From positions 1-64,000 of IMG/VR virus record IMGVR_UViG_3300031227_000032: a DNA stretch of 64,000 nucleotides. The stretch is one strand, 5' to 3'. Numbering within the stretch: the first letter of the stretch is position 1; the number at the start of each line of letters is the position of its first letter. The DNA comes from a virus. The notes beneath the pieces were generated by a model. That model worked only from the letters and a program-made list of their open reading frames with translations. It was not told the origin of the DNA and searched no databases. The position numbers and the translations under genes were made by a program. Positions 40,374 through 61,122 of the stretch are shown here, one piece after another.

Positions 40374-43300
40374 TTAATAACCCGTCGTGCGCATTTGCCC
40401 ACGTAGTGTATTGCCGCGCGATACTTGCTGTAACCGTTGCGCTTTCGTGACGTTCAGCATTTCTGACAGCAGCCGTTCGCGTTCATTGTTAGTATCGAAT
40501 ACATAGATCGGATTGCTGGTAGACTCGCCACGGTTTTTCTTGCCGCCGAATAGTCCGCCGAATAGTGCTGATATTCCAGCGCCCAGGAATCCGCCGATGA
40601 CAGGCCCGAAGCCGCCCATGCTACCAAAGCTGGACGTGATAGCCTGTGTGAGTGGCTGTACAATCGCGTCCGCCACGCCTGACCAATCGTTAGTGCTTAC
40701 CGCTGTGAATAGTGCATCGCCTAGCTGCGCGGTGAATAGCGTAGCCGTCTGCTGTGCTTGCTGTGCGATTTGCTCAGTAGCTCCACCAGTAGCGCCCAGA
40801 CCGGACGCATCAGCCGTGCCTCAACCGCCAGGGCCGCAAGCCGCATTACTTTCGCCGTATGTAGGATCATACCCACCGGCCATAATGCCGATACCGCGCA
40901 TCTCCAAGCCGAGTGCTGCAGCCCCAACGCCCATGTGTGATTGTTGAGCAACAGCGCCTAGTGCCCGTCCGCCAATGTCAGCAGGGGTGTTACGAATCCA
41001 ACCTGCGCTATCACTACCACCCGACTGGGCGGCCACATCAGCGGCTAGACTTAACGCATCATTAACTGTCCGCTTGGCCGTTGCCAGTGAGCCTATTAAT
41101 GATCGCTCGATAGCATCAGTAACCGCCATAATCGAAGCCACTGATGCGGTCTGCATTGCAGTAAACGCACTGACCATTTCAGTATGCAGATCAGTAACGC
41201 GCTGTAAGACACGTGGCACGGATTCATCTACAGTGTCATAAATCCCTTTCCACATGTCAGGCCAGATTGAATGGCCTACAATGAGATCCCACGCCCATTG
41301 AAATGGAGCCACTACGTTCTTTGCGAATGTCTCGATCTCTTTAACGACCTTGCCTACAAATTCAGTTACGGTAGCCCATATGCCATCCCACAAGCCAACC
41401 CAGAACTCCGTTATATCAGTATTGACGTTTTCGAACCATTCAGTAATATCATCAATGAAGCCAGATATAAACTCGCCAGTATTAGCAGCAATTGTATCAG
41501 CAGTATCGGCGATAGTTTGCCATGCTCCCGACCAATCGCCAGTAATCAATTTCAGCCCAACCTCGAAGATACCACCGACAATAGCAAGCGCGTTTTTAAC
41601 AACAAGTTTGATCGCATTCCATACGGTTGAAATGACAAGCTTAATGCTTTCCCACACAATGCTAACAGCGGCCATGAACGGCGGCCCCCACTTATCCCAT
41701 ATGATCTTGATAGCATCCAACGTAACGCTAAATGCTTCTTTAATCAGTGGCCAGTTTTTCATCCACCAATCAATGATCGGCTGTACTAACTCCAGCGCCT
41801 CAGCGCCAAGCCAACCGAATACCTCACCGGCTTTATCCCTTATGGCAGTGAGTGTCGGACTGATTTTATCCTTGACTTCCTGAATCTTTTCTGCGAACGC
41901 GCTAGCCTTTTGTTCACCCTCAGTCAACGGCCCGACGAATCCGTCAGCAGGTGCTTTGCCTGTCAACGCATCCCATGCTGCGCGAACTGTTTCAATCCTT
42001 TCGGCCAGAACTTGCGCGCTAACCTCCGCCTCACTCAATGGCCCGATAAATCCCGACTGAATCTTATCCGGCCCCTGCCCAGTCAATGCCAGCCATGCCG
42101 CCTTGACAACATCCATAGCCTGTGCTATCTGCGGGAAGTTGCTGTCAGCAAATGATTTAATCTTACCCCAGTTGGCGATGATCAACGCACCGCCCGCCAC
42201 AATAGCAGCTACAGCAATCCCGATAGGGCCAGTCATGGCGGTAAATGCAACACCAATACCTGGCGCGGCAGCTACTATGTTCCCAATGATCATCAGCAAC
42301 GGGCCAAGTGAAGCTACCACTCCGGCGGCAATCACTCCGAAATTCAATAATACTGGATTGGTTTTTGCCAGATTTTGCACGAACGGTATTGCGGCTTCAA
42401 CTAATGAGACAAAGCCGTCAAGCAGTCCGCTGTCTGAGATTGACAAGCCTAAGCCCTGCACTGCTGAACTGAGTCGCGTCAATACCGGCGTTACTTCTGT
42501 AGCGATCCGCGCAGCCGTGCCAGCCGAGGCCAGGTTCGCCTCAGATAGTCTTTCTAGTGCCGCGCTGCCCTGATTCACCAATGCGGCCATAGCTGGCCCT
42601 GCACGCTGTCCAAAAATAGTCATAAGCTCAGCGGTTCTTTCCACTTCGCCCATGCCTTCCAATCCCTCTTCAAACTGCGCGATGATATCAACAAGCGGCA
42701 GCATAGCACCATCCGCACCTTCAATACTAACTTTGAGTTTCTTAAGGGATGCAGTGGCCTTTGCGCCTGGATTGATCAGTAGCGATATAGCGGTCTTGAG
42801 TGACGTACCCGCCATGCTTCCCTGAATACCAGCGTTACCTAACAGACCAACAGCGGCAGCGACCTCTTCAAACACAAGCCCAGATGATGATGCAATCGGG
42901 CCTACGAACTTCATTGATTCGCCAAGCATCCGCAGATCAACATTGGCGCTAGTGAATGTGTTAGTCATTACATCCGCTACGCGCGTCATTTCAGTGGCCT
43001 CAAGGCCGAAACCAGTCAGGATGTTAGACGCAATATCGGCAGTAGTCGCTAGATCAATCTGACCAGCGGCGGCAGCGTTCAACACACCGGGCAACGCGCC
43101 GATAATATCCACAGCCTTGAAGCCCGCCATTGCGAGGAAGCTCTGTGCATCAGCGGCTTGCTTGGCTGTAAACGCCGTGGTCTCGCCAAGCATTTTGGAC
43201 TGCTTACGTAGCTTCGCAAACTCTTCAGCGGTGGCACCTGACAATGCACGCACGCGATTCATCGAGTTCTGAAAGTCAATGCCGAGCTTAATGATCGCAG

Positions 43301-43502
43301 CGCCGACGCCGACGATAGGCAACGTCAAGCCCATCGTCATTTTTCTGCCGACGCCCGCCATCTGACTGCCCGTCTTTTTCCACGCGGCGGCTGTCTTTTG
43401 CGCAGCAGTGACGCCCTTTTTACCAGCGTCAGTCAGCGGCTTGCTGAGCTTGTCTTTCAGCTCTAGTACAACCTCTAAGATTTTCTGATCAGTGTTTGCC
43501 AT
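40374..43502 (-). CDS. Tail tape measure protein (TP901 type), 1042 aa if the in-frame TGA at 40821-40823 is read through
   Basis: PhageMin_Tail core (FTAKQAADAQSFLAMAG, GIQGSMAGT), W/F helical repeats; frame stays open past TGA into a typical TMP Gly-rich C-terminus (GGFLGAGISALFGGLFG), TAA abutting the next ATG. Confidence 0.85.
40784..40820 (-). promoter_or_regulatory. Putative bacterial SECIS after TMP UGA
   Basis: UGA-12nt-GCGUCC-GGUCU-GGGCGC; GGUCU at +22..+26. Confidence 0.65.
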
Positions 43503-43845
43503 TCTTTTTACTGCTCGCCTTTTCTTTAGCCGCGTCAAGCTCGGCTATTTTTCTGTCAATCACGCCCATCGCAGATATGTACCAAACAGGTTGATCCTCA
43601 AGCCCGCCTGCACGGAATGAGAATCCATTTTTGTAATGAGCATATAGCCCATTCAAGTAAACGCTCAGTTCGGATACATCTTTCCACGGGCAGTGGGTAG
43701 CATAGATAGGCTCTATGCAATCCCCCACCCGTCGCTCGTCAATCTGCAGCATCCCATCTGTACAACCTACTCTACAGTTAGCTTCGTCAAAGTTGCATCC
43801 GGAACATCGGTCTCCGATTCCGTGCTGGAGTTTGATGTAAAATTT
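43489..43845 (-). CDS. Tail assembly chaperone T domain (-1 frameshift product)
   Basis: GGLEDQP.WY motif; -1 frame open from the slippery site to the stop. Confidence 0.7.
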   Translation of the reverse strand, partial: KFYIKLQHGIGDRCSGCNFDEANCRVGCTDGMLQIDERRVGDCIEPIYATHCPWKDVSELSVYLNGLYAHYKNGFSFRAGGLEDQPVWYISAMGVIDRKIAELDAAKEKASSKKNGKH

Positions 43846-44222: not shown

Positions 44223-44231
44223 CTCAAACTC

Positions 44232-45131: not shown

Positions 45132-45146
45132 AAATTCCCCCTGCGG

Positions 45147-46225: not shown

Positions 46226-46887
46226 TAGTATGACCTGCGGATATATCCGTCCAGCACGGTCTTAACTTCTGGCGTCATGCCCTTATTGAATCGCTGGATT
46301 AGAAACTCCTGTCCGGTAACTTCAACGCCCTTCACGCCCAACCTGCCACCGCCGCCGCTTGCGCCCTTGCCCTCTAACCACTTCAGCACAGCCATAGTAC
46401 ACACCGCCCATTCCAGATCAGCGGGCACGCCGAAACTTGCAGTCATGGCTAACGTATCCCAGCTCGTGGTGATGTATCCCGCGATGTAAGTGACTTTGAT
46501 ATTCTCATCACCGATAGGCCACGCGCCGTATTCCGCATCATCCTCTTGCCCCAACTTCGGATAGCGCACGTGGAATGAAATGCCGCGCTCATCTTTCAGC
46601 AGTTGCATGTATGAGGTAGATTCGCTCACATATGTCTCAGTGCCAGTATCCCAAATGCTGACAGCACTTAGCGCAGTGACAGGCTCCTCGTTCAGATACA
46701 ACAGCGTGCGATCATCACCGGAGTAATACTCATCAGTGATGGTAGACGATTCTAGCCGACGGTTGCAGTATTCGTTGACCTCTACTGTCGCAGCTTCAAG
46801 TAACAGCTTGAATGAATCGTCATATGTCGTCTCAGGTTCATTCAGCAGCAAGTCATCTTTCATTACGCTTAATCTACCTAGTGCCAT
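46225..46887 (-). CDS. Head-tail connector (gp6/gp15-like)
   Basis: LLEAA...YCNR, VTYIAGY, VPADL, L..Y.R. Confidence 0.8.
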   Translation of the reverse strand: MALGRLSVMKDDLLLNEPETTYDDSFKLLLEAATVEVNEYCNRRLESSTITDEYYSGDDRTLLYLNEEPVTALSAVSIWDTGTETYVSESTSYMQLLKDERGISFHVRYPKLGQEDDAEYGAWPIGDENIKVTYIAGYITTSWDTLAMTASFGVPADLEWAVCTMAVLKWLEGKGASGGGGRLGVKGVEVTGQEFLIQRFNKGMTPEVKTVLDGYIRRSY

Positions 46888-47513
46888 TGTTGCAATAACT
46901 CCCTGGCCACCGGTACATCGAGTAGCGTTGGCGATAGTGATTCTATTCTGATTCCGTTATCTTGCGCGCGGTATATCATTGTCTGTAATGTGCCGCGCTT
47001 GTAGCCCCAAATGTCCCCCTCAGAGCGCTTGCCGTCACAGGTTGACCCGTCGGCGTGTGCGTGACCTGTCATGTCAACTCCGCAATAAACGATATGCCGA
47101 CACCCTTGCTTAATCAACATGTCAGTCGCAACACCCGCTACAGTGCCGCCCGCAACTAAGTAGCTTTCGCCAAGTCGCTTAGGTGCTTTGTTGTATGCGT
47201 ATTGTCTGCAGGCATACGTCGGGTTATGTTCGCGCATCCGGTGATCCATCAGTGACTCAACGCCGCTATGTAATCCAAACTCCCACCATTGCGGGTTGAT
47301 ACCGGGCGCTTCGGGTGATGTGCATATCCATAGATCGAAGTTGAGCAGGTGTTGTATCGAGCCGTTGACAGCGACAGTGTAGATGTTATCGGGTATGCGG
47401 TTTATGTAAGCGCTACCTAGCGGCCCAGCGCCTACTATGATGGATGGATTAGTTACCGGTAGCTGCGCATCGAATATGTCTATGGGCGTAGTATGTTCTG
47501 AGGAGGTATTCAT
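46878..47513 (-). CDS. DUF115/MptE-like (Maf-type) Rossmann protein
   Basis: IIVGAGP, VAVN, GGTV, YCGVDM. Confidence 0.6.
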   Translation of the reverse strand: MNTSSEHTTPIDIFDAQLPVTNPSIIVGAGPLGSAYINRIPDNIYTVAVNGSIQHLLNFDLWICTSPEAPGINPQWWEFGLHSGVESLMDHRMREHNPTYACRQYAYNKAPKRLGESYLVAGGTVAGVATDMLIKQGCRHIVYCGVDMTGHAHADGSTCDGKRSEGDIWGYKRGTLQTMIYRAQDNGIRIESLSPTLLDVPVARELLQQWH

Positions 47514-48432
47514 GATTGAGGTATTGTGCAACTTCGTATACGCCGGTAGACTGGATACTATTCAGCTTGTTTGTAAGTACAGTTTGATAATCTTCGTTGA
47601 CTAACTTTATGCCGTCCGTCAGCTCTGACAATCGGAATACGCCTGACGGATGTTCATGTATGGGCGGGATGCCAGCGTGATATACCGCCCTGCCCGCCAT
47701 AAGCGCCTCGTATCCAGCGGTAGAGTTGATTGTTACTACCGCATCACACCTTGCTAAATCCTTAGCGTAGGGGCGCTTCATTTGCCAATCGTCGGTTACT
47801 GAGATTTCAACGCCGTCTATCGGATCGCTGAGCATCGGATCAGGATACCACGTTATGTCTGCTGTAAACTCTTTATTCTGTAGCGCAACGCATTTAGGAT
47901 GCGGTCGATATGTCAGCTTTGCGTTAGGTAATATTGTAGACACTTCGGCTACAAGTGTAGATGAATTGTATCCATTGCCGCCGTATGCTAGTGATTGATC
48001 GCTCTGTATCTGTCCAACGATAAGCACGCTTTTAATCTCAGCGTCAGTCTGTAGCGCGGGTTTAGTCGCTATGTATTGCTGCGAGGTCATCGCACGCTGA
48101 AATGTATCTTCGGTGTACAGCGCCCAGTCGAATCTATCGCCTGCATAATGACTAGCGTAGGGTAACGCATAATGCCAGTAGTGTATACCAGCATCGCGGA
48201 ATGCCTGTCGCCGTGCATCATCATGGTCAACGTATTCCATGGCGAGTACTGTATCAATACCGCGCTCTATGCAATCAGCAACGCTATCATCTTCCAGCAG
48301 CCACAACTCGCCGAATGATTTAAGCAACGTCGGCATACGGACTGTATCGGGATGATCGAAGCGCCCGCGTAAATGCGGCATGATGGCAATGTGGCGGTGT
48401 TGTAGCTCGCTGTTAGTGTGGAGTAGTTTCAT
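47449..48432 (-). CDS. Capsule_synth (KpsC/KpsS-like) glycosyltransferase-fold protein
   Basis: GQ..SD.S, YRPHP, VVTINSTAGYEAL..G..V...G. Confidence 0.7.
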   Translation of the reverse strand: MKLLHTNSELQHRHIAIMPHLRGRFDHPDTVRMPTLLKSFGELWLLEDDSVADCIERGIDTVLAMEYVDHDDARRQAFRDAGIHYWHYALPYASHYAGDRFDWALYTEDTFQRAMTSQQYIATKPALQTDAEIKSVLIVGQIQSDQSLAYGGNGYNSSTLVAEVSTILPNAKLTYRPHPKCVALQNKEFTADITWYPDPMLSDPIDGVEISVTDDWQMKRPYAKDLARCDAVVTINSTAGYEALMAGRAVYHAGIPPIHEHPSGVFRLSELTDGIKLVNEDYQTVLTNKLNSIQSTGVYEVAQYLNHEYLLRTYYAHRHIRCAATGN

Positions 48433-49564
48433 TTATCTCGCCAAACAAACTTCGCTGTTGAGTCCGCTTCTTTGCCAACTCTGCATACTCCGGGTTAAGC
48501 TCGATCCCTACCCACTGCCTGCCCAATGTCTCGGCTACTTCGCCTGTCGTGCCGCTGCCGAAGAACGGGTCTAGCACTATGCCGCCTTCAGGACACCCCG
48601 CCAGTATGCATCGCCGTGGTATCTCAGGCGGGAACACTGCGAAGTGCGCGCCGCTGTAGGGCTTGGTAGCGATTGTCCAGACGTTGCGGGCGTTGCGGGT
48701 TTCACCTCTGCCGCTGAGCATTGCTCGAGTACCCTGCTTGCTGGTGTCTGATGCTCGAGATAGGCTATCGCCTTTGTGCGCGATATTCCCGCCGAGCCGC
48801 TGATAGCATTGCCGCATGCCCGGGAAGTTCACATCTGTTTGATTAGGTTCGCTGATCGCATCCGCGTCATACCAATAATCCATTCCCCGCCACAGGTTAA
48901 TCCGCCGCCAGTCTGCCATCATTACTTCGGGTGGCTCAACGTCGGTTTCCTCTCTGGTGTGTTTATTGATCCATCGGTAATCCGTCAGATGCACGTATGA
49001 CCACTCACGGGAATCACGGTGTCGCCAGACGGTTGTGTTACCACTCTTGGTCAGCAGGTAGATATGCTCATGCGCTGACGTTGGGCGATCCTTGCAACTC
49101 TCGGGCATCGGGTTAGGCTTTGCCCAGATGATGTCACTACGCAGCCACCAGCCGTCAGCCCGCAGCGCCAGGGCTACACGGGCGGGGATCATGCACAGGT
49201 CTTTGGGTTTGAGTCCTGGGGGTAGTTTGCGCCGTGGCAATGCAGTTCCTTCCGCTTGCCCAATGTTACGACCAGTGGTGCTGTTCGCCCCTTGTTTGCC
49301 TGTCATACATCCAACGCTGTAGCTATCCCCCAGGTTCAGCCAGCATGTGCCCTCGGGTTTTAGCACGCGCCGCACTTCGGCGAACACCGCTACCATCTTG
49401 GCGACATATTCATCCGGCGTGGATTCAAGGCCGATCTGCTCATCGTTGCCATAGTCACGCAAGCCCCAGTAAGGCGGACTGGTCACACAGCAATCAATGG
49501 AATCAGCAGCCATGCCGCGCAGGATTTCGATACAGTCGCCAACGCGGATGGTGTTAGTCTCCAT
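48413..49564 (-). CDS. DNA N4-cytosine/N6-adenine methyltransferase (beta class)
   Basis: TSPPY, IIWAKPNPMP, HFAVFP, VLDPFFGSGTT. Confidence 0.9.
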   Translation of the reverse strand: METNTIRVGDCIEILRGMAADSIDCCVTSPPYWGLRDYGNDEQIGLESTPDEYVAKMVAVFAEVRRVLKPEGTCWLNLGDSYSVGCMTGKQGANSTTGRNIGQAEGTALPRRKLPPGLKPKDLCMIPARVALALRADGWWLRSDIIWAKPNPMPESCKDRPTSAHEHIYLLTKSGNTTVWRHRDSREWSYVHLTDYRWINKHTREETDVEPPEVMMADWRRINLWRGMDYWYDADAISEPNQTDVNFPGMRQCYQRLGGNIAHKGDSLSRASDTSKQGTRAMLSGRGETRNARNVWTIATKPYSGAHFAVFPPEIPRRCILAGCPEGGIVLDPFFGSGTTGEVAETLGRQWVGIELNPEYAELAKKRTQQRSLFGEINETTPH

Positions 49565-50429
49565 TTAGCTCATCATCCACAACGCGCACTATGGGTTGCT
49601 CAGGATCATTGGTTGCGAAATCATGCACCATCGGATGTTCGCCCGCTTCTGGATGTTCTGCCATCTCCCATGGCGGCTTATCCGTCACTGTCATTATTGA
49701 TTTAACTTCGCCAATCTTTACGGGCAAACCATCATCATCCCTGAAACACAGATCGGCTATTGGCTTACGTTTCATCGCATAGACTTCCATCATGTTACCT
49801 GGCCATGCGAAGTTGTATTTGAATCCTAACAGCTTGCCGATGAACTTAAACCAATCCCACGTATCAGCATAAGGCGTTCCGTGATATGGCAACTCAATAT
49901 CTGTAATCACCATGCCGACATGTCGCAAGATGTTACACAGTTCACGTTCGCCGAATGTCACATAGTTATACGCAGGATCGAGTGCCGGTAAGTCACCGAA
50001 TAGCCTATACACTATGCTGTCAGTATTGGGCGTTGCGAGGAATATCATGTATCCCCCTGGACGCAAGCGTTCAACGCATTCGCTGATCACTGTTAGCGGA
50101 TTGTCAAGGTGCTGGATAGTGCCACGGAATACTACAACATCGTAGTAATCGTAGCGGTATTTATACGGATGTACTGTGATGCCTTTGCTTGCAGCAATCT
50201 CGCGCGCATGGTCTGATACTTCGATGCCGTGCTTAGTCCACGTATCGGGGAACATCTGCAGAAAATCGCCGATACCACAGCCGTAGTCCAGAATGCGATG
50301 CCGCTTATCGAAGTCAGGTATCAGCGTTTCGATACGCGCGATCTCCTGTCGGTACATCTCCGCGCGCTTCGGATCGTCGCCGTATGCCGAGAAGTAGTCG
50401 GCGTTGTATAGCTTTTGGGGGCTAGTCAT
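49554..50429 (-). CDS. Class I SAM-dependent methyltransferase (glycan-cluster type)
   Basis: ILDYGCGIG, GIE.S, HL..P, L.PGG...TPN. Confidence 0.85.
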   Translation of the reverse strand: MTSPQKLYNADYFSAYGDDPKRAEMYRQEIARIETLIPDFDKRHRILDYGCGIGDFLQMFPDTWTKHGIEVSDHAREIAASKGITVHPYKYRYDYYDVVVFRGTIQHLDNPLTVISECVERLRPGGYMIFLATPNTDSIVYRLFGDLPALDPAYNYVTFGERELCNILRHVGMVITDIELPYHGTPYADTWDWFKFIGKLLGFKYNFAWPGNMMEVYAMKRKPIADLCFRDDDGLPVKIGEVKSIMTVTDKPPWEMAEHPEAGEHPMVHDFATNDPEQPIVRVVDDELNGD

Positions 50430-50439
50430 GTTTACTCCC

Positions 50440-50661
50440 TTACTCTACTCTGCGCTTGACTCCAGCGCAATACACATAACGTGGTTTATCACTGCTGTAC
50501 ATGCCGTCAAACTCCGCGCGTGATTCGGGCTTGCGCAGTGCGGCCTTGCGGCGTTTCAGCTTGTCAATCACGTTATCAACCTCATGCCACGAGCGCGGGT
50601 CGATGCCGCCTAAGCTGAACTCCAGATCAGAGATTGTAGCGTCAATGTCGCGTTTAGTCAT
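50440..50661 (-). CDS. Small hypothetical protein
   Basis: ATGA overlap with upstream gene. Confidence 0.5.
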   Translation of the reverse strand: MTKRDIDATISDLEFSLGGIDPRSWHEVDNVIDKLKRRKAALRKPESRAEFDGMYSSDKPRYVYCAGVKRRVE

Positions 50662-50924
50662 CGCAGACTGCTCTCAGTGATGTTCATTTCCTTTGCGAAC
50701 TCCAATATATCCGTCGTGATGTTCCCCGCCTCATCTGTGCAATTGTTAGCAACGGCGGTTCGCAAGTCACCCTCAAGCCGATTCAGCCGCGCCTCGCCGT
50801 CATTAACCCATTGCGTTGTTTCGTCAATGCCAGGGACATTGCCAGCCCACTCAATCATACCACGTTTATCATCAATGGTGGCATGCATAGATGCGATATA
50901 ACGCTCAATTAAATTATTATCCAT
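50658..50924 (-). CDS. Hypothetical protein, predicted leaderless
   Basis: TTGACA(50959)-17-TATGAT-6nt-ATG. Confidence 0.6.
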   Translation of the reverse strand: MDNNLIERYIASMHATIDDKRGMIEWAGNVPGIDETTQWVNDGEARLNRLEGDLRTAVANNCTDEAGNITTDILEFAKEMNITESSLR

Positions 50925-50963
50925 ACCACCATCATACCACACTACCGAGCATTTGTCAACCCC

Positions 50964-51758
50964 TCATCGCGCATCCTGTTTCCATGCCGCGCGTTTCGCG
51001 CAGGTATCCAGTGCATCAGCTTGGGCAATGTTCGCCGCCCCGATCTTGTCAACCTGCGCCGCCGCCTCGTTTGCTGTATCATGCACTGAGAATGTAAGCC
51101 CATATCCGCCGTGCCAAACAAGTTCATACCAAATGGCGCGGTAACGGGTTTCGTCTAATGCGTTCGTCTCGGCGATGATCTCTGGCAGTATGCGTAGGAA
51201 ACGCTGATGGTCAGGCATTTTAGTATATGGCGTCTCACTGTAATAATCAATATCATTGGCGTGGCTTACCTGATCAATGTGTTCGGCATGTTCGAGCGCC
51301 GCCAGCATGCTTTCAAATCCTAACCTTTTGATAACCGCCTTTTTCCAGTCCCAGCAACTGCCGCCATCAGTGAAACCTCAACCGCCAGATGATGATGATG
51401 TTCCTTTCTGCACACCTCCCCAATAAATATCATATTGATCGCCGTCTTTGATTATCCATGCTGGCTTATGCAAATCACTCAATGCGCATTTAGCAACATA
51501 TGTGGTACGTTGTGTATTGCATAATGAATATCGGATAGCGTATATTGGGAGCGCACATAATACCAATATACACAGGGCCATAATGACTATACATATCGTT
51601 GATCCCACACAGGCGACTTCAGACATCTCATGCCCATCTGCCGCAGATTGGGTAATGTATGCGTATTGTGGCCCTGCCACTTCATCACACGAACAAGTTA
51701 GCGTAACTATCAGCAATATACTGATTAACGCAACTGCAAATTGCAAATGTTTGTTCAT
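50964..51758 (-). CDS. Membrane protein, 264 aa if the in-frame TGA at 51378-51380 is read through; paralog of 51791..52270
   Basis: Leaderless start; frame open across TGA into 50964..51308; both halves resemble parts of the intact neighbour. Confidence 0.6.
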
Positions 51759-51790
51759 GCTTACACTATACCACACTCCGCGCCGTTTGT

Positions 51791-52270
51791 CTAGTACCAC
51801 GTATCTCTTTTCTTTGCAATGATATCATCTTGCTTAGCCTGCAGCCTTTGGGCTAAATCCTGCTCCGCTAATTGCCGTGTGGCGTGAATAGTTTGAACCA
51901 CTTCACACCATTCATACTGCTCTGACCATGAAGATGTACCACAGCCGTCTATGGTATCACTGCCGTGCGTGTAGTGATTCGTTTCAGACTTTAACTCATA
52001 TACGCACACTGCGTAACGCTGCTCGCCTAGCTCATTTTGCTCAGTTTCAATCCACGGGTCTCTGGCAAGGTCTTTCACTCTGACGGCGCGTTTACGGGCG
52101 CAATAACGGATTATTGCAATCCCACCGAATATTGATAATACCATTATCCCTGATGCGACTACTATGTACAGCAGATTGCCAGACGCGAGCGGTGGTATCA
52201 AGCATAGCGGACATACCAATAAAAGCATTCCGATTATAATAGTTTCATCACTCATGCCATATGTGTCCAT
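51791..52270 (-). CDS. Two-TM membrane protein, predicted leaderless
   Basis: TTGACA(52305)-17-TATGAT-6nt-ATG; hydrophobic N-terminus. Confidence 0.65.
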   Translation of the reverse strand: MDTYGMSDETIIIGMLLLVCPLCLIPPLASGNLLYIVVASGIMVLSIFGGIAIIRYCARKRAVRVKDLARDPWIETEQNELGEQRYAVCVYELKSETNHYTHGSDTIDGCGTSSWSEQYEWCEVVQTIHATRQLAEQDLAQRLQAKQDDIIAKKRDTWY

Positions 52271-52301
52271 ACTACCATCATACCACACTATCGCGCTTTT
52301 G

Positions 52302-53540
52302 TCAACCCCAGACCACGCATTCATCACGCATCCTGTTTATCCACGTCAGCAGTTGCCAGTAATCCAACTCCAGCCCATGCGCAATATCCAGCACTGACAG
52401 CCTGCCGTCCAGCAAATCGAGCACGTCGGCGTATTTCAGATTGAGTTGCCGATCCTGTCGCCAGTCTACCCATAGCCCATGCTTCGATAAACAGATCGGC
52501 CCTTGCCCCGTGCGTTGCGGATACCAGTCGCTATCCATCATATCCAGCAGATCAGCAACGCGGTTAGCGGCGTCCATTATCAAGCTGGGGTGTAGGCGCT
52601 CCGCAGTGTCCAGGCTCGTGTGATAGCCGTAATATGGCACCTCACCTTTCGCCCAGCAACGCGCACGGCTTATACTGACAGCTGGGATGCCGACGTTGTT
52701 ATACACCTTTTCATCATTGCTTACAACGGTGCGGTATGGCTCGGCCTCATCACAGACCAGCACGCCAGCTTTGTCAATCAGCGATTCATCGAACGGCGAG
52801 TGCTGTAATACTAGCCTGTTATCATTGCCCAGCATATCCAGCGCGATAGCGTAGCGGATGTTATGCTGCTCGTTCGCCAAGTATGCGATAGTGCCGATGG
52901 TCTCAGGTAGCCACAGAAATCTCAACCCATACTTACGCGGCGTATCGCGGAGTCGCTTCACAAGCTCGACCATCGCAACGCAACCTGACGCATCATCGTT
53001 CGCCTGCATCGGATGGCAGACGTGCGCTGTCAGCACAATCTCGGCGTCAAGCGTGCCAGGTAGGTACACCTCGCCGATGGCAAGTTCGCCGTCGCTAAAC
53101 TCGCTGTCGATAAGCACGCGGTATTCGTCAGCATCGAACTCGTGTAGGCGGTCATGCTGAATGCAGAATGCCCACGCTGGTTCGTAGTATGAAAACTCAA
53201 ACGGGATACCCGCTGGGCAATCCTCACGACTGCGCACATGTTTCATCAGCTCGTTATGGCTGATCGCAGTATCGACCGCCGTGCTGTAGCTCATCACGTG
53301 CAGCGGATGGTCGTCAGTGGATACGATGATACTACCGTCGGGACGTGCGATGTATGCTGTGCGGCACTCCCACTTCGGCGGTATCGTCCAGTCCCATACC
53401 TCACTGCCGGTCGGGTAGCGATGTATTTGCAGCTCCGGTAGGCGTGCGGCAATCGCGCCAAGTGCCGTATCGTAGCCGTCTGAGATGAGGTCACGGCGGT
53501 ATGCGCTGATTTCGTGAAGTAGGTTTTGCATAGTTGACAT
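52302..53540 (-). CDS. DUF4910 aminopeptidase-like protein with C-terminal winged helix
   Basis: WTIP..W, LHV.SYS, IP...SYY...W.FC, H.CHP.QAND..SG, PETIG, YHTS.D. Confidence 0.85.
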   Translation of the reverse strand: MSTMQNLLHEISAYRRDLISDGYDTALGAIAARLPELQIHRYPTGSEVWDWTIPPKWECRTAYIARPDGSIIVSTDDHPLHVMSYSTAVDTAISHNELMKHVRSREDCPAGIPFEFSYYEPAWAFCIQHDRLHEFDADEYRVLIDSEFSDGELAIGEVYLPGTLDAEIVLTAHVCHPMQANDDASGCVAMVELVKRLRDTPRKYGLRFLWLPETIGTIAYLANEQHNIRYAIALDMLGNDNRLVLQHSPFDESLIDKAGVLVCDEAEPYRTVVSNDEKVYNNVGIPAVSISRARCWAKGEVPYYGYHTSLDTAERLHPSLIMDAANRVADLLDMMDSDWYPQRTGQGPICLSKHGLWVDWRQDRQLNLKYADVLDLLDGRLSVLDIAHGLELDYWQLLTWINRMRDECVVWG

Positions 53541-53568
53541 TTAGCGTGATGTGTGGTATAGTGATGGT

Positions 53569-53754
53569 ATGAGGATTATCAAGATAGTCGCTGCATTCTT
53601 TTTATTCTGCGTGCTGGCGTCAATCCCAATATCATTACAACCTGAGGTTGGCGGCTATCTCAACGCATTAGTCGCAACAATTGCCGTGATGGTTGTAGGA
53701 TTGCTGATCGTCGTTCCGGTCGTGCTATTGCTGGCATCAGCAAGCGACCACTAA
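53569..53754 (+). CDS. Small two-TM membrane protein, predicted leaderless moron
   Basis: TTGACA(53534)-17-TATAGT-6nt-ATG. Confidence 0.6.
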   Translation: MRIIKIVAAFFLFCVLASIPISLQPEVGGYLNALVATIAVMVVGLLIVVPVVLLLASASDH

Positions 53755-53759
53755 TACCG

Positions 53760-55406
53760 CTACTTATCCGTCCCTGGTAGTAACTGTTTCACCGCTTTAT
53801 TCAGTCTGCACAGCGAGCTTGGCCCGTAGTGTCCTAGTGATATACGCGGATCGAGACTGCCCAGCACCATATTCATTCCAGCAGCCATACTACCAAATGG
53901 TTTTTGCGGTGGCCCTGTAGGCGGTTCCTGGTAGTCATAGTAATGCGTGCGGTTATTGCAGTAGTCTAGTCCGATCATGTGTATCGTCTTGACGTTCGGA
54001 AAACTCGCCGCAAGCTGTACCGCTCTGGATGAAATGCCGCCTGCGCCGTTCAGATTGAACGCCTCAAACTTCGCATCATTACGTCTAGGCGGTAGATGCT
54101 CGAACTCGTAATGATCGAACGGATAACCGCCTGCCGCCTCCAGTAGCTTATGCCCGATCAGGTGTACATTGCCCCGTAGGTTGCGCCAGATACGCGGATA
54201 CTTCCAGGCATCAATGTTCATCACTAAAAACAGATCAGCGTCCACAACTCCGCAACCTGCGTTAACGGAGATCACGGTATATTTGCTCAAGTCTACTTTG
54301 TCGATGTACAACGCGGTAGGCCCACTGCCGACGACCAGCACCTTATCGGTAGGCTGGAAATCCTCTGCGAACTTCTCTATCTTGCCAAGGCACTTACCCT
54401 GGACGTTCATCGGCGGCGATGCGTTAGGCTTGCTCAATGTCGTTTTATGCATGTCACCATATGTTATCAGCATATCGCGTTCCTGCTGTAGCCAGAACTC
54501 CGCCTCGTATGCTGAAAACTTGCTGCTCTGAATGCGCGATAGTGTGGGCTTTAACGCTCGCAGGTAATCGCCCGTTACAACCTTAGCGCCCTCATCTAAA
54601 TAATCCAGTAACAGATTGCCGCCTGGATGCTCGTGCAACATCGGCACGCCTGCGTTATAGACCGGCACGCTTGCCATAAGTGACTCATACGCGGCAGTAG
54701 AATTGATAGTGACTGTCGCATCAGGCCATCCGAAACTCAGCTTACCCTTGTCAACCTTCACGCCGTCTATCGGATGCTGTAAATACGGATCGTTGTAGAC
54801 CTGCTCGCCGTTTACTTCGCGTGATTCCTTGACTCGATTCAGCGTCTTAGGATGCGGACGGTATTTAATCTCCGCGTCAGGTAGTATCGTGCGAACGTCT
54901 TTAACTAACCGCAGTGAGTCATACCCCCTACTGCCGTATTGCAACGCCTGATCGCCCGTCACCTGTCCAATGATCAACACCTTGCGGATAGGCTGGCCTG
55001 TCGCTATTGCCGCCTCCGCCGCCATGCGCTGCGGTGAGGTGACGTAACGTAGGTAGGTATCGTCGGTGTATAAGCCCCAATCGAAGCGTGACGTTTCGTA
55101 GTGGTCTACCACGCCTAGCCCGTGATGCCAGTAGTTTATGCCAGCGTGACGGAATAGCCGCGAACGGAAATCACGATGCCCTGAATACTCACTACAGAAT
55201 ACAGTATCAACACGGTGGTCTAAGCATTGTGCTAACAATTCCTCATCGGTATACGCAAGGTCATCCAGCACATACACCTGGCCGAACGCGCTGAACATCG
55301 GACGTAACCTGTTGCTCCGGATATGCGGCACCATGTGAGTCGTTACCGCCACGATACGGTTAGCAAGCGGTGTGCTCTGGTCAGTTGTAGAGTGTAGTAG
55401 TTGCAT
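53760..55406 (-). CDS. Fusion of KpsC/KpsS-like GT domain and DUF115/MptE-like domain
   Basis: GQV.GD, YRPHP, TINSTAAYESL; then VVGSGPT, ISVN, IGLDY. Confidence 0.7.
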   Translation of the reverse strand: MQLLHSTTDQSTPLANRIVAVTTHMVPHIRSNRLRPMFSAFGQVYVLDDLAYTDEELLAQCLDHRVDTVFCSEYSGHRDFRSRLFRHAGINYWHHGLGVVDHYETSRFDWGLYTDDTYLRYVTSPQRMAAEAAIATGQPIRKVLIIGQVTGDQALQYGSRGYDSLRLVKDVRTILPDAEIKYRPHPKTLNRVKESREVNGEQVYNDPYLQHPIDGVKVDKGKLSFGWPDATVTINSTAAYESLMASVPVYNAGVPMLHEHPGGNLLLDYLDEGAKVVTGDYLRALKPTLSRIQSSKFSAYEAEFWLQQERDMLITYGDMHKTTLSKPNASPPMNVQGKCLGKIEKFAEDFQPTDKVLVVGSGPTALYIDKVDLSKYTVISVNAGCGVVDADLFLVMNIDAWKYPRIWRNLRGNVHLIGHKLLEAAGGYPFDHYEFEHLPPRRNDAKFEAFNLNGAGGISSRAVQLAASFPNVKTIHMIGLDYCNNRTHYYDYQEPPTGPPQKPFGSMAAGMNMVLGSLDPRISLGHYGPSSLCRLNKAVKQLLPGTDK

Positions 55407-55409
55407 AGG

Positions 55410-56153: not shown

Positions 56154-56315
56154 AGCTACAGTATACCACGGCTAGCGCGGAATGTCAAGTGGTTATGAAT
56201 ACTACACCGCGCAAATGTCAAGTGAATGAAACGGGCGACCCTAACGGCCCCAACATCAGAGCCGCCCGCGCAAAGGAGTTAATAGTAGTAACCTCGTAAG
56301 GCTACAGGTAGATTG

Positions 56316-56783: not shown

Positions 56784-58072
56784 TAGGTGATCTCCAGAAT
56801 TTTGATTGCTTCACTCTGTGCGACCTTGCCACCATAACGCGCATACCACTTGAATACCACGTTCGGGCTTGAGCTGAACGGATCACGCAGAATCCATACG
56901 TCCTTACGTCGCACAATACGGTAGCCCTCGCGGAAATCGCCTAGCATCAGCGGCTTATTCCCGTCAACAGCATCATTGTCCATAGACTGCGAAATGTCAT
57001 ACGGACGCCCCGCGAGCATGACCGGCGGGCCTTCCTTCAGATTGCGCTGCCAGATGAATCCACCGTTATCGTCTTCGAGCTTCATTGCCTTACCCAGCAC
57101 AGTCGCATTCATCAGGAATGTCGAACTATTCTGGTAGCGTGGCAGCAGTCCCGTACCGTCGTCGCCGTTACCGGAAAGCAGCGAATAGAAGTCAACCGCT
57201 TCGAGTAACCAAGTGCTCGTGTCATTGCCGGCCACGAGGTCAACGTCAGAGGTAGAGATGATACCTTCCGGCTTGCCGTTGCCATCACCTTCCAGGAAGG
57301 CGACTCCCAGCGTATAGCCGATAGCCTCGCCAGCGTCCTTAGTCAGCTCGTTTTCCATGTAACTAACATCCTGCAGCAACGAAGTGGTAGCAGGGGTGTT
57401 GACGCCTACAATGTGAATCGGAATACTGACCAGGTTATAAACCGACTGACTCGCGGTCGCATCGCTTTCCTCGCCAACCCAGTAACCGGTAGGCCCAGCA
57501 GAGCGCCGACTAAACCGATACTCGTTGGAGTTTTCCAGCGTAACTACGCGAGCATACTTCATAATCGGATCAACGCTGACGGTGTTCTTAACAATCTCAT
57601 CAGTCTGTTCCGGAGTGACAAGGAAACCGCCAGCGGTAGCCACGCCCTCAGACAATGCGCGGGTAGCAATAGCCTGAAATTCCTGACGCGCCATAAACTC
57701 CTTAGCGAGCCCAGGATTATCGTCACGCATAAACGCATGACTAGCGACGCGGTGCTCTTCTTTCAGCACGTCAGTTTCGCCAGCGGCATTACTCCGCGAC
57801 AGCTTAGTGTCCAGTTCGTCAATGCGAGATTCCAGCGCTTCAGTAGCATCTTCGCGTGCCAGCTTATCAGCGTCATTGGCAACCCGCGCCTCGCCGACCT
57901 CTTTAGTAACGCCGACTACTTCTTCAGTGATGCGAGCAAACATTTCGTCAACGTCGCTGCGGGCAACCTTGCTGCCCAAGAGCGTTTGCATTTCCTCAAC
58001 GTGCTCGCCAATGTCGCCGAGCCGATTCTGTAAATCGGTGCCCAGCTTTTCAAAATTAAATTCGGTACTCAT
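56783..58072 (-). CDS. HK97-fold major capsid protein
   Basis: Coiled-coil delta domain, GGFLV.P, W..E, AFL.GDG..KP.GI, GDF, R.GG. Confidence 0.92.
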   Translation of the reverse strand: MSTEFNFEKLGTDLQNRLGDIGEHVEEMQTLLGSKVARSDVDEMFARITEEVVGVTKEVGEARVANDADKLAREDATEALESRIDELDTKLSRSNAAGETDVLKEEHRVASHAFMRDDNPGLAKEFMARQEFQAIATRALSEGVATAGGFLVTPEQTDEIVKNTVSVDPIMKYARVVTLENSNEYRFSRRSAGPTGYWVGEESDATASQSVYNLVSIPIHIVGVNTPATTSLLQDVSYMENELTKDAGEAIGYTLGVAFLEGDGNGKPEGIISTSDVDLVAGNDTSTWLLEAVDFYSLLSGNGDDGTGLLPRYQNSSTFLMNATVLGKAMKLEDDNGGFIWQRNLKEGPPVMLAGRPYDISQSMDNDAVDGNKPLMLGDFREGYRIVRRKDVWILRDPFSSSPNVVFKWYARYGGKVAQSEAIKILEIT

Positions 58073-58103
58073 AGATTCCTCCGATGAGTAAAGTAAATGT
58101 GTG

Positions 58104-58841
58104 TTACAGTTTATTTGCAACAGTGGTAGCGGTGTCTATCAGCGAGTGCAACATGCGCGACTCAGCTTCATTAGTAGCGGCTTGAGTGGATTCATCCGGC
58201 TCAAGTGCTGGCGCTTCAATGTCAGCTTCGGTACTGCCGTGCCCGTCGCCGTTGTCTGCAAGGTATTCGTCAAGCTGCGTAGCATTCGGAATGCTCACGC
58301 CTAAATCTTGAAGTAGCTGGATTGTAAACCTAACTTGCGCTAGATTATATGCGGATCGCATTTCATTGACTCCAGCACTCGGCCCAGCCTGCCAGTCTGG
58401 AGGTGTAATCGAATATTCAAATAGTCTCGCCTCTTTAACATGATTAACTTGCTTATCGTCAGTCTCCATTTGCATAGGTTGGAAGCCGACGGATAGACCA
58501 ATCTTACGATCAGCCTCATGTACCAACTTCATATATCCCCACGTCTCTTTAGCGATGGCGTGAGTCTCGATACTCAGCTTCGCACTGACTGCTAGGCCGT
58601 GCAGGTCTTCCGTTGCTGACTGCCCCAATCCAATCGGCGGTCTGCCAGAATATGAATCGTGCATATACAGCACTGATACCTTGCCGCCATTCTCCGATAG
58701 CGTCTTTTTATATGCGCCAGGGTCTACCATTTCGTTGTAGCATTCAATCAGTTCATTGAACACACTGGCGTATCCGTCAAACTCTCCTGTATCGCGCACG
58801 TCGGCTACGCGCATTTTAACGGTGTAATAATGTCTATCCAT
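58104..58841 (-). CDS. HK97-type prohead protease
   Basis: FDGYASVF, L..HD, GLSVGF, L.EYSI; start MDRHY. Confidence 0.9.
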   Translation of the reverse strand: MDRHYYTVKMRVADVRDTGEFDGYASVFNELIECYNEMVDPGAYKKTLSENGGKVSVLYMHDSYSGRPPIGLGQSATEDLHGLAVSAKLSIETHAIAKETWGYMKLVHEADRKIGLSVGFQPMQMETDDKQVNHVKEARLFEYSITPPDWQAGPSAGVNEMRSAYNLAQVRFTIQLLQDLGVSIPNATQLDEYLADNGDGHGSTEADIEAPALEPDESTQAATNEAESRMLHSLIDTATTVANKL

Positions 58842-58878
58842 GTTTCCCCCGTGGCGGGTAGCCGCCGTGTTTATCCTC

Positions 58879-59766
58879 TTAAGTTTTCGGGCGTAATTGT
58901 TTATCACCTGGTAGCATCGGTGACAATCCGCAACGGCATTGAATGTCAAACGCAGCCTTGCCGCTCAGCATCGGCCCTTCGATGAAACCGACCTGATTGA
59001 ATGTATCAAACAGCCCGTCCGCATCCGTCACGGCTCCGTCCATGACGATGTGACTGTACATGTCTTTGCCACCGCCACGTACTAAGCTATCGCGTGCCGT
59101 TAGCCACTCTGAACGTATCACAACATCCAAGTATTCGGCGGACTGTTTGTAACCTTCAAGCTCTGCTTTAATGTCCGCACGTCCGACTTCGGTTCTAGCA
59201 ATAGCGTTGCTACGCGGTTGTGTGATCGCATCAGTCTTGCCTGACCATTCGGCGTATTTCTCACTGATTGCTTTCGATGTAACCTTGAAGCCCTGATCTG
59301 CAGTATCAGCGATGATGACCTCTAACTTTGCCGCGCTGGTTTTGTCAATCAGGTTAGAGCGTATATGTAAATTCTCAGTAAGCCACTTCCGGAAGTCAGG
59401 GCGATCAGGTGCGAACGCCGGTAGCTTTTCCGCTGCCAGTACTGCAACCTCATCGACTGCCAACTGCCCGAACTCAGCTACTAACTCAGCTTGCAATGGG
59501 CCAATGATCGCAGCATACGCGGCATTTTCCACTTCAGGATTCAGCAACGGCTTAGGCTTATCAGCGCGTGTCTGTGCGGTCTTGAGTACCCGCGCCTCCT
59601 GACCTACCCAGTATTTTTCAATGCCCGCCTTGTAGCGTTCCTGCCACGGCTCGCGTATCTTATCCTGATCGGCTAATCGCTCCTCACGATCAGCCAGCGT
59701 TGGATACTTACTGCTGGGGAATGTAGGCTCATCGCCTATATCGTCATCGACCCGATGACTTGGCAC
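58879..59766 (-). CDS. MuF/gp7-like head morphogenesis domain (likely C-terminal part of a portal fusion)
   Basis: IARTE, W.T.RD..VR..H...DG, QCRC; in frame with the portal and no well-spaced RBS. Confidence 0.8.
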   Translation of the reverse strand: MPSHRVDDDIGDEPTFPSSKYPTLADREERLADQDKIREPWQERYKAGIEKYWVGQEARVLKTAQTRADKPKPLLNPEVENAAYAAIIGPLQAELVAEFGQLAVDEVAVLAAEKLPAFAPDRPDFRKWLTENLHIRSNLIDKTSAAKLEVIIADTADQGFKVTSKAISEKYAEWSGKTDAITQPRSNAIARTEVGRADIKAELEGYKQSAEYLDVVIRSEWLTARDSLVRGGGKDMYSHIVMDGAVTDADGLFDTFNQVGFIEGPMLSGKAAFDIQCRCGLSPMLPGDKQLRPKT

Positions 59767-59769
59767 GCC
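59731..59769 (-). promoter_or_regulatory. Putative bacterial SECIS after portal UGA
   Basis: UGA-10nt-GUCAUCG-GGU-CGAUGAC perfect 7-bp stem. Confidence 0.65.
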
Positions 59770-61122
59770 TCATCCGCAGGTTTCCAGATACGAACGCATA
59801 GCGCGCGCCGCCTCTTTTGTTTCATTCTCTTCGGTATCGACTCCGATCTCCTCTGGCTGGAGTTGTTTCAATGTATCTGGCAGTCTGATATACGGCTTGT
59901 TCAACGGGTTATCCGGATCGTCAGGCTCGATCATTTCAAGCCCGCTGGCTTCGCGCTTTTCGTTCGGGGTCATCCAATCGCTGTTAGCAAGGTTGTGCAC
60001 TCGTTCCGTTACGTTATCCTGCAGCGCGTTGATTCCGCTTACAATCGGTAACAGCTTTACATCATCTTCAAGCCCCATCTTAGGTAACACAAACTCTGCA
60101 AACTCCTCGCGGAATAAGCGATGCAATGGCAATACTGTATTCTCATAGAGGAATCGTTCAGCGGACTCGACATTGTTATACGTTGATGATTTGTCATCGC
60201 CGACTAACTGTGACGGCACGCCCAGCGCCGCGCAGATATGCCGCATTGTCACACCAGCGCCGCTAGTCCAGTCCATCTCTTTCGGGCTATGCGCGAGTGC
60301 CATATAGTTAGACTTCTCGCCGTCAATGAAAGCCGTCGCGCCTGCGTTAGATGCACCGCTGAACTTATCGTTGTAATCCTGCTCAATGCGTGCGCGCACT
60401 TGCGGAGTCAGTGAACTCCAACCCGTAATCTGCAACACACCGCCTGGTACTGCACTATTAGTAAGTAGCTTAGAGTTCCAAGCTAGCTGTAGGTTGCTGG
60501 TATCAATGTCCGTCGCTGCAGCATTCAATGGTGATAATCCAAACATCGGATGCGCAGGATCGGTGAACTTCACGTTATACATTTCGTCAGGCGTCAGATA
60601 GCGTTTATTGCCAATGCCTGTTTCGATAACGTACCGACTGACTGTGCGATTATCTGTGGTTTCAATCGTCACGCGGTCAGGCAATTCGAGATACATTTCA
60701 GGTGCGGTCTTGGGTTGCGTCTTGCCATTAGTCGTGCGCTTGCCAATGCCGATACCTTCGATGTATGTGATACCGGCAAGGTGAAGCTGATTAGACCACA
60801 GCGCGATGAACTCGTGATAGCCTTGATTCGGATTGAAGCGCTGCACTAAGTTGTACAACGGCTTGACGCGCGGGGCTATATCATCCTGCGTTACAATCTC
60901 GCCCTCATACTCGATGCCGATTGGTACTGCGCAAAGGCCGTTGCCGATTACCCGCAAGCAGGCATATACAATCGGATTGTGCCGATACGCCTCTTTGTAA
61001 AACTCATTGAATCGGCGCGCGCGAAACTCAGCACTGACACCGTTAGTATCCTGAATCGTCAGAACCTTAGCGCGCAACATCGACCGTAGTATGAAGTTTT
61101 GGAATCGTTGTTTAAGGTTCAT
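59770..61122 (-). CDS. HK97-family portal protein (747-aa portal-MuF fusion if TGA is read through)
   Basis: VYAC..VI, PN, GLSPL, PGGVL, GASNAG, ICAALGVP, TYNN.E, TPNE.R. Confidence 0.92.
   Translation of the reverse strand: MNLKQRFQNFILRSMLRAKVLTIQDTNGVSAEFRARRFNEFYKEAYRHNPIVYACLRVIGNGLCAVPIGIEYEGEIVTQDDIAPRVKPLYNLVQRFNPNQGYHEFIALWSNQLHLAGITYIEGIGIGKRTTNGKTQPKTAPEMYLELPDRVTIETTDNRTVSRYVIETGIGNKRYLTPDEMYNVKFTDPAHPMFGLSPLNAAATDIDTSNLQLAWNSKLLTNSAVPGGVLQITGWSSLTPQVRARIEQDYNDKFSGASNAGATAFIDGEKSNYMALAHSPKEMDWTSGAGVTMRHICAALGVPSQLVGDDKSSTYNNVESAERFLYENTVLPLHRLFREEFAEFVLPKMGLEDDVKLLPIVSGINALQDNVTERVHNLANSDWMTPNEKREASGLEMIEPDDPDNPLNKPYIRLPDTLKQLQPEEIGVDTEENETKEAARAMRSYLETCG

Follow-up and report, generated by a model that had tools for sequence, protein, structure and literature searches.

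Candidate selenocysteine codons in the tape measure, portal and membrane protein genes of an uncultured tailed phage

The stretch of DNA analysed here, called the window throughout, comprises 64,000 nucleotides of IMGVR_UViG_3300031227_000032, a linear record of 72,516 bases estimated to be 67% complete. It derives from an uncultured tailed phage and has a GC content of about 52%. Three frames on the minus strand of the window each contain one in-frame TGA, with Gly codons on both sides at all three: GGT-TGA-GGC at 40821-40823 in a tape measure protein (TMP) gene, GGT-TGA-GGT at 51378-51380 in a small membrane-protein gene, and GGA-TGA-GGC at 59770-59772 in a portal gene with an in-frame MuF-like domain. 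The corresponding protein contexts are C-G-P-G-G-UGA-G-T-A-D, S-G-G-UGA-G-F-T-D and T-C-G-UGA-G-V-P-S. An initial annotation, made from the sequence alone, had proposed that the phage recodes these TGAs as selenocysteine (Sec) under the direction of a selenocysteine insertion sequence (SECIS). The three TGAs and their Gly flanks were all found as it had described them, and each frame does continue beyond its TGA, for 148 (TMP), 137 (membrane protein) and 296 (portal-MuF) open codons, and what follows the TGA in the TMP gene corresponds by homology to the C-terminal domain found in full-length relatives of the protein.

The TGAs are not an artefact. Contigs assembled from other runs were letter-identical to the window across each site, with 0 differing letters; the contigs spanned the TMP TGA (X2 record 1, 40736-41814), the portal TGA (X2 record 8, 58075-59847) and the membrane-gene TGA (X3 record 12, 51163-51652). 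Their read depth was low, about 3-6, but their agreement shows that the TGAs are not an error of one assembly. Two further features of the initial annotation were also borne out. Within the 72.5-kb record, the shared element CTGGCGGTTGAGG-N5-CTGATG has exactly two copies, one at the TMP site and one at the membrane-gene site (13 + 6 nucleotides in common), and a Cys lies near each UGA (C901/U906 in the TMP, C449/U451 in the portal protein, U141/C149 in the membrane protein). The 24-nucleotide shared motif was considered as a widespread element and rejected, as IMG/VR held 2 loci with an identical AT-rich sequence and no open frame, about the chance level. Short +1-frame open reading frames (ORFs) beginning at CTGATG, of 29 and 15 codons, had no relation to each other and were dropped.

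The TMP gene (40374-43538, minus strand) spans 1054 codons if the UGA is decoded (905 codons, the UGA and a further 148). Its product matches PF10145 and PHROG tape-measure families, with phrog_28 covering residues 11-1035. The UGA (40821-40823), a candidate Sec906 in the motif C-G-P-G-G-U-G, is preceded five residues upstream by Cys901 (TGC, 40836-40838), the only Cys among the 1054 residues and its candidate partner in a C-x4-U arrangement. A HMMER search with the last 355 TMP residues against 1.84 billion representatives returned 53 matches at E <= 1e-3. All five full-length homologs that span the site have a Cys pair at the equivalent place, and in four of them these are the only Cys residues: C632/C637 in P0021 (783 residues), C641/C646 in P0028 (808 residues), C527/C530 in P0023 (684 residues; a CxxC) and C57/C67 in P0018 (225 residues; C-EILADGSMQ-C, a C-x9-C). 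The fifth, P0022, has C883/C888 and one distant Cys. The second Cys precedes a conserved [DN]W by 44, 52, 41 and 46 residues in P0021, P0028, P0023 and P0018, respectively, a range of 41-52 residues in four of the five homologs (91 in P0022), compared with 45 residues from the UGA in the window. With X at the UGA, MAFFT placed the Cys motifs close together, offset by no more than a few columns, but not in a single column; the correspondence of Cys and UGA is therefore drawn from the motif, its uniqueness and its distance. In the alignment of the C-terminal domain, G84 and W96 are invariant and D95 is near-invariant, with the U at position 50 of its row.

Called proteins of four further TMP lineages stop at the equivalent place, three of them at C-x4 or C-x9 and the fourth without Cys. 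P0024 ends in ...LCGPQG, with its only Cys 5 residues from the end, P0061 in ...SCPGGT, P0037 in ...TCWVNADGSKS, with its only Cys 10 residues from the end (C-x9-end, compare the C-x9-C of P0018), and P0029 in ...GMGGG. The protein end lies 41, 64, 78 and 55 residues past the last aligned block (P0024, P0061, P0037 and P0029); in the window TMP, the UGA follows the corresponding blocks by 43, 60, 82 and 62 residues. Conversely, 14 stand-alone ORFs of 87-208 residues hold only the domain behind the site; their starts are inconsistent, several falling within the conserved domain, and such scatter is what a gene caller yields after an in-frame stop. One of these, P0013 (208 residues), has a single Cys, aligned with the second Cys of the pair, and starts exactly 10 residues upstream of it. 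Were its start preceded by a TGA codon, the arrangement in this lineage would be U-x9-C, with Sec replacing the first Cys.

The window TMP offers no way of making the C-terminal domain separately from a canonical start. The 48 codons that follow the UGA (40677-40820, minus strand) lack such a start and include the invariant G, D and W residues of the domain, and the first ATG, GTG or TTG downstream of the UGA, a GTG at 40676 (ORF 40374-40676), lies beyond them. With no canonical start before the invariant residues, the TMP UGA must be decoded. Searches with the TMP in IMG/VR and metagenomes returned only N-terminal relatives, none with Gly-TGA-Gly, a word-based search with the TMP C-terminus found only the TMP itself, and searches of IMG/VR with P0012 and P0013 gave nothing useful.

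A diverged relative was found in IMG/VR using a profile built from four of the stand-alone ORFs. It is a single phage, represented by 3 contigs with an identical 8.3-kb stretch, and its GC content is 64% (from two contigs, G001 and G002, read whole), compared with about 52% for the window. Over the N-terminal 424 residues its TMP shares 54% identity with the window TMP, falling to 26% in the C-terminal half, and it has a TGA in the identical CGPGG-TGA-G motif (loci L100, L101 and L102). The codons are TGC GGG CCC GGC GGT TGA GGC in the relative and TGC GGC CCT GGC GGT TGA GGC in the window, the differences being synonymous. A pattern scan for the motif in all of IMG/VR, from which the record of the window was excluded, as in all our motif scans of that database, gave 24 loci, and the only TMP sites among them were those on the 3 contigs of the relative. 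The relative, too, uses TGA stops for genes. As a proposed check of Sec decoding, the initial annotation had asked whether homologs have Cys or TGA at the site; the homologs do carry a Cys pair at the place of the UGA, and the UGA is kept in the diverged phage. We regard the TMP site as decisive, and the comparative support that it lends to Sec is strong.

The relative also encodes a tRNA-like gene (L106:6484-6559 on G002; L109:11038-11113 on G001) with an 8-nucleotide anticodon loop and an encoded CCA. ARAGORN assigned it the four-base anticodon 'cacc', and its Rfam tRNA score of 27.2 bits is just below the 29-bit cut-off. tRNAs with an expanded anticodon loop have been linked to frameshifting or hopping.

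Each of the three TGAs in the window is followed by a potential hairpin (positions counted from the U of UGA as +1). The TMP hairpin (40792-40808, minus strand) has a 6-bp stem (+16-21 / +27-32) and the loop GGUCU (+22-26), with a predicted energy of -10.1 kcal/mol; the portal hairpin (59743-59759, minus strand) has a perfect 7-bp stem (+14-20 / +24-30) and the loop GGU, at -8.6 kcal/mol; and the weak hairpin of the membrane gene (51352-51363, minus strand) has a 4-bp stem (+18-21 / +26-29) and the loop AGUU, at best -4.5 kcal/mol. The small stem-loop with a GU in its loop at +22/+23 or +23/+24, reported by the initial annotation, is thus present at all three sites. In the relative, the TMP UGA is followed by a 7-bp stem (+14-20 / +24-30) with the loop GGA, which differs in sequence from the window TMP hairpin and lies at a similar distance from the UGA. 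This hairpin and the portal hairpin have the same geometry, and 4 of their 7 pairs differ on both sides while 3 are the same. A three-way alignment of the hairpins gave no single common structure line that fits.

The frequency of such hairpins was estimated with tests of different stringency. A loose test (a stem of at least 4 bp and a 3-7-nucleotide loop holding GU, with its G at +22 or +23) was passed by all three sites, compared with 89 of 3131 TGAs in the record (2.8%) and 249 of 9347 in-frame codon positions in late genes (2.7%); widening the position of the G to +19..+27 raised the proportion to 10.4%. The strict test (at least 6 bp, with a 3-5-nucleotide loop starting with GG at +21 or +22), a criterion set after the sites had been seen, was passed by the TMP and portal sites of the window and the TMP site of the relative, against a background of 150 of 144,912 positions (0.10%) and 142 of 94,414 positions (0.15%) in two genomes. 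Both the TMP and portal hairpins also agree with a consensus for bacterial SECIS elements given in a 2026 review of prokaryotic selenoproteomes (PMC13188914), namely a 3-9-nucleotide loop, a stem of at least 4 bp, a G in loop positions 1-2, a spacing of 16-37 nucleotides and an energy of -7.5 kcal/mol or lower. This consensus is also matched by 116 of the 3131 TGAs in the record (3.7%).

The portal (PF04860) and MuF-like domain are encoded at 58879-61122 (minus strand), 747 codons if the UGA is decoded, with phrog_2662 covering residues 36-736. Fused portal-MuF homologs exist: P0004 (719 residues), P0006 (736 residues), phrog_2662 and a 759-residue frame without a stop in the relative phage (L103), which is 41% identical to that of the window. 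The UGA (59770-59772, minus strand), a candidate Sec451 in C-G-U-G-V-P-S, belongs to a stretch of about 18 residues (about 59737-59790) missing from all the fused homologs. This motif resembles C-G-P-G-G-U-G-V-P-S of the relative's TMP, and the first 11 nucleotides from the UGA are identical, with the Ser that follows drawn from a different codon family in each. A GTG lies 3 nucleotides past the stop, and re-initiation is possible there. From these likenesses, the portal site is probably a site of the same kind placed in a linker insertion and decoded likewise.

The small membrane-protein gene (50964-51758, minus strand; about 264 codons if the UGA is decoded, taking ATG 51758 as the probable start) is the middle one of three tandem paralogs, and its UGA (51378-51380, minus strand) lies in S-G-G-U-G. 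The paralog that is a single ORF resembles both parts of the gene: no shuffle of 500 reached its score against the part before the UGA, a similarity that is partly promoter DNA, and 2 of 500 reached the score of its C-terminal part against the part after the UGA. The two halves of the membrane gene therefore belong together. An alignment of the paralog's G-C-G with the UGA, obtained by MAFFT with U written as C, was rejected, as 104 of 500 shuffles reached the score when X was used. No homologs of the membrane protein (P0002) were found elsewhere, and an AGGA 9 nucleotides before ATG 51308 is a possible start signal for its second half. Sec at this UGA is weakly indicated and possible: the context shared with the TMP site favours it, and the weak 4-bp hairpin and the lack of homologs do not. 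The TGA at 50964-50966 (minus strand), which ends the membrane gene, was also considered. In its frame, another 101 codons stay open behind it (the third paralog), and the loose hairpin test is passed there too; the sequence that follows is the next gene's promoter, however, and this TGA is taken as an ordinary stop.

The similarity of the three paralogs at the N-terminal 'protein' level is in part a conserved promoter. Sigma-70-like promoter sites with a TG-extended -10 element lie at 50931-50959, 51765-51793 and 52277-52305 (minus strand), with 11, 10 and 11 of 12 consensus matches, each 6 nucleotides before the ATG of a paralog. This arrangement suggests that the paralogs are leaderless, independently transcribed 'moron' genes in the head-tail module, and the near-consensus promoters argue for a host with a standard sigma-70.

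Outside the three sites, TGA behaves as a stop in this genome. Genes of 1095, 813, 565 and 549 codons have no in-frame TGA, and TGA ends ordinary genes: the Pfam match of RtcB reaches residue 391 of a 392-residue ORF that stops at TGA, and the frame beyond that stop holds many more TGAs. This use of TGA as a normal stop elsewhere shows that the code is not reassigned, and global recoding with translation table 4 or 25 was rejected on the same grounds. No tRNA of any kind was found in the 72.5-kb record. The initial annotation had seen no sel genes or tRNA-Sec in the window; this holds for the full record, in which no SelA, SelB, SelD or tRNA-Sec was found.

Searches for a host gave no direction. 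A profile of the C-terminal TMP domain run against 1,202 sampled genomes (400 + 401 + 401) gave only Gly-rich false matches, one of them DnaJ. A profile of the TMP N-domain gave 80 loci in genome contigs from many phyla; these pointed to no host, and all of them lacked the C-terminal domain. No prophage relative was found in the 1,202 genomes or in the 80 loci. A separate observation concerns a locus in an alphaproteobacterial metagenome-assembled genome (L025:2665-4410, plus strand), a 581-codon frame with one TGA and the same 9 nucleotides on each side (GGCGGTGCG TGA GGCGGTGCG).

A UGA where homologs have Cys, accompanied by a partner Cys, conserved in a diverged relative and followed by a hairpin whose loop begins with G at about +21, is the recognition signature of bacterial selenoproteins. 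We consider Sec insertion by the SelB system of the host to be the most likely explanation overall, and rate it as moderately probable for the three sites together, with higher confidence for the TMP and lower confidence for the other two. The TMP UGA would be a Sec codon that replaces the second Cys of the conserved pair (C-x4-C to C-x4-U), and the hairpin, starting 10-14 nucleotides past the UGA, may act as a bacterial-type SECIS. Host SelB and Sec-tRNA would bind this hairpin, deliver Sec and compete with release factor 2, and the outcome would be the full-length TMP of 1054 residues. The portal-MuF UGA would probably be decoded in the same way and that of the membrane gene possibly so, and the host would be expected to possess SelABCD. 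We infer both the identity of the residue as Sec and a role for the Cys/Sec pair; as a guess, the pair might respond to redox state or form a cross-link, close to where the tape measure meets the tail tip. It is about an even question whether a widespread siphophage TMP family exists that carries Sec in C-x4-U or C-x9-U in place of a Cys pair, with the same cassette (Gly-UGA-Gly and a hairpin) placed by this phage in the portal-MuF linker and the membrane protein as well, and whose particles depend on host SelB and tRNA-Sec and on selenium. As to the proposal of the initial annotation that all three UGAs are decoded as Sec with the aid of a 3' hairpin, it gained strong comparative support at the TMP site and is plausible at the portal site, where context, motif and hairpin geometry are shared, but it is weak for the membrane gene. 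Its description of a candidate new system did not stand, and what we propose is rather a known recoding mechanism in a new place.

Several observations weigh against Sec insertion. The main point that it leaves unexplained is the strict Gly-UGA-Gly context with its conserved wobble bases: the Gly codons around the TMP UGA (GGC GGT TGA GGC) keep the same wobble bases in phages of 52% and 64% GC, which a tRNA-Gly hop accounts for more directly. Sec insertion is inefficient in the bacteria studied and a truncated TMP is probably useless, a combination that counts against such a codon in this gene. E. coli SelB requires GU in the loop, which is missing from the GGA loop of the relative. The membrane hairpin fails both the -7.5 kcal/mol limit of the bacterial SECIS consensus and the strict test, Rfam returned no match to SECIS or any other family, and the stability of the 60-nucleotide windows after the TGAs is not unusual compared with shuffles (z = 0.78, -0.01 and -0.98). 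At the column of the portal UGA the homologs have a gap and no Cys. The four TMP lineages that stop at the site (P0024, P0061, P0037 and P0029) were compared as proteins only. Finally, no tRNA-Sec, SelB or SelD was found in four phage records that are 36-70% complete, SelA having been sought in the record of the window only.

The Gly codons themselves could instead point to a stop-hop, in which, with UGA in the A site, peptidyl-tRNA-Gly detaches from GGU (or GGA) and pairs again with the Gly codon past the UGA, so that 9 nucleotides yield one Gly and no residue is inserted for the UGA itself. Such codons flank the UGA at the three window sites (GGT/GGC, GGT/GGT and GGA/GGC) and at the TMP site of the relative (GGT/GGC), whereas among 51 in-frame single-TGA junctions from other loci there is not one with Gly on both sides. 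A hop would also fit the retention of GGT before and GGC after the TMP stop between the two phages, and the tRNA-like gene with an 8-nucleotide anticodon loop in the relative. A review documents hops in synthetic constructs with matched flanking codons and indicates no known natural in-frame case (PMC5009743). A hop would explain neither why the stop falls at the conserved second Cys nor why there is a single partner Cys, and in other lineages the last residue is Thr (P0061) or Ser (P0037) instead of Gly. At the portal site, the GGA/GGC pair is served by two different tRNAs of the E. coli type, which counts against a hop there, and known hops are about 1% efficient; on balance, we consider this mechanism unlikely. 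We give a similarly low probability to leaky termination, with a near-cognate Trp, Cys or Arg tRNA reading the UGA, the Gly-Gly end of the nascent chain and the hairpin aiding readthrough, and a set ratio of short to long products. The required decoding of the TMP UGA, the conserved context and the fixed distance of the hairpins are compatible with it, and at the portal site it could yield the portal alone plus some portal-MuF fusion. However, Trp at the place of the conserved Cys would lose the pair, and stops that recur at the exact Cys position in several lineages are a pattern of Sec/Cys families and not of readthrough.

It is improbable, to much the same degree, that the TGAs are ordinary stops of split genes whose downstream parts are made by re-initiation. 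Portal and MuF are separate in many phages (the matches of the portal search were portal only), a TGA-GGC-GTG restart is present at two of the four sites (window portal and relative TMP), the membrane gene has its AGGA before ATG 51308, and gene callers did call separate ORFs. Against this stand the window TMP, which has no canonical start before the invariant residues of the domain, and the stand-alone ORFs of other lineages, which start at inconsistent points, some within the domain; the Cys correspondence and the hairpins would be left unexplained. Far less likely still is a suppressor tRNA or changed code, with UGA read as Gly or Trp, supplied by the host or by the third of the phage genome that the record lacks. 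In its favour are the 67% completeness of the record and the plain Gly runs that UGA read as Gly would give at the three sites, but TGA ends many ordinary genes, late ones included, no further TGA interrupts the long genes, searches of the record found no tRNA, and the relative also uses TGA stops. An assembly error or nonsense mutations in a decaying prophage are equally remote. GGA to TGA is the only one-step change from Gly to stop, and read depth is low, yet contigs of runs from different samples and years carry the same letters, the TMP TGA is kept in a diverged phage on 3 contigs, and all other genes look intact.

The late genes of the phage lie on the minus strand and comprise the terminase, the portal (PF04860) with its in-frame MuF-like domain, a prohead protease, an HK97-type capsid protein, an HNH gene, a glycan/methyltransferase block, the three small tandem paralogs, tail genes and the PF10145 tape measure gene. 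The large terminase is about 25% identical to those of known phages, which indicates that there is no close cultured relative; megablast of the TMP and portal genes against phages gave no useful match, and neither a portal search in IMG/VR nor a capsid search in genome contigs returned anything useful. Sampled words from a 1-kb stretch of the TMP gene were present in 11 runs labelled salt lake metagenome, and no RNA runs were among the listed runs with TMP-gene words. Between the capsid and tail modules, at 46878-55406, lies a block of host-like genes that encode a capsule-synthesis-like protein, a class I methyltransferase, a DNA methyltransferase (about 43% identical to phage enzymes), a DUF4910/M28 peptidase-like protein and an HNH endonuclease. 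Among the early genes there is a full-length RtcB RNA ligase (10456-11634, minus strand; PF01139, E = 1e-102). In other phages, RtcB is taken as repairing tRNAs cleaved by the host.

If Sec insertion at these sites is correct, these would be the first structural selenoproteins of a bacterial virus, and phage particles would contain selenium. Roughly one-fifth of bacteria decode Sec; the assembly and host range of such a phage would be tied to these bacteria and to the availability of selenium. A testable role, as a redox latch, cross-link or metal site, would emerge for the Cys pair that is conserved toward the tail-tip end of the TMP. Gene callers systematically split these tape measure genes, as can be seen from the N-terminal proteins that are cut short and from the 14 separate ORFs for the C-terminal part. 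Should a tRNA-Gly hop operate instead, it would be the first natural in-frame stop-hop and of interest to the recoding field.

Some phages reassign a stop codon throughout their late genes, with TAG or TGA recoded by means of phage suppressor tRNAs. The phage described here resembles them in having in-frame stops in late structural genes and differs from them in that it has only three isolated TGAs, uses TGA otherwise as a normal stop and has no suppressor tRNA that we found. A tie between phages and the selenocysteine system has precedent in predicted tRNA-SeC genes, in Basilisk-like Bacillus phages (PMC6145125) and in Salmonella phage SSBI34 (PMC8879037). As far as the consulted parts of these papers go, they contain tRNA predictions and no selenoprotein gene, whereas the present record has candidate selenoprotein genes and no tRNA-Sec. 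Our literature search found no phage structural selenoproteins in the parts of the texts it covered, phages appearing there only with predicted tRNA-SeC genes, and the words phage, virus and viral do not occur in the 2026 selenoproteome review (PMC13188914). Synthetic stop-hops and the bypassing in phage T4 gene 60, as treated in the hopping review (PMC5009743), share with our sites a Gly take-off codon before the stop, a matching Gly codon after it and RNA structure nearby; they differ in that, in the present case, the stop falls where homologs have a conserved Cys and no coding gap is skipped. The closest counterparts are bacterial selenoproteins with a SECIS inside the ORF, of which E. coli fdhF is the prototype and PMC13188914 supplied the model. 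Like the TMP, these carry the UGA at a position that Cys occupies in homologs, have a partner Cys within a few residues of it, retain the UGA in a diverged relative, and possess a small stem-loop with a G in the first loop positions 17-18 nucleotides past the UGA. Unlike them, the proteins considered here are parts of the phage particle (tape measure, portal-MuF) rather than cellular redox enzymes, have up to three sites per genome in a common Gly-UGA-Gly context, and would rely on decoding machinery supplied by the host. The mechanism would be one already known; the novelty would lie in proteins of the virus particle being made by it and in a TMP family built on C-x4-U.

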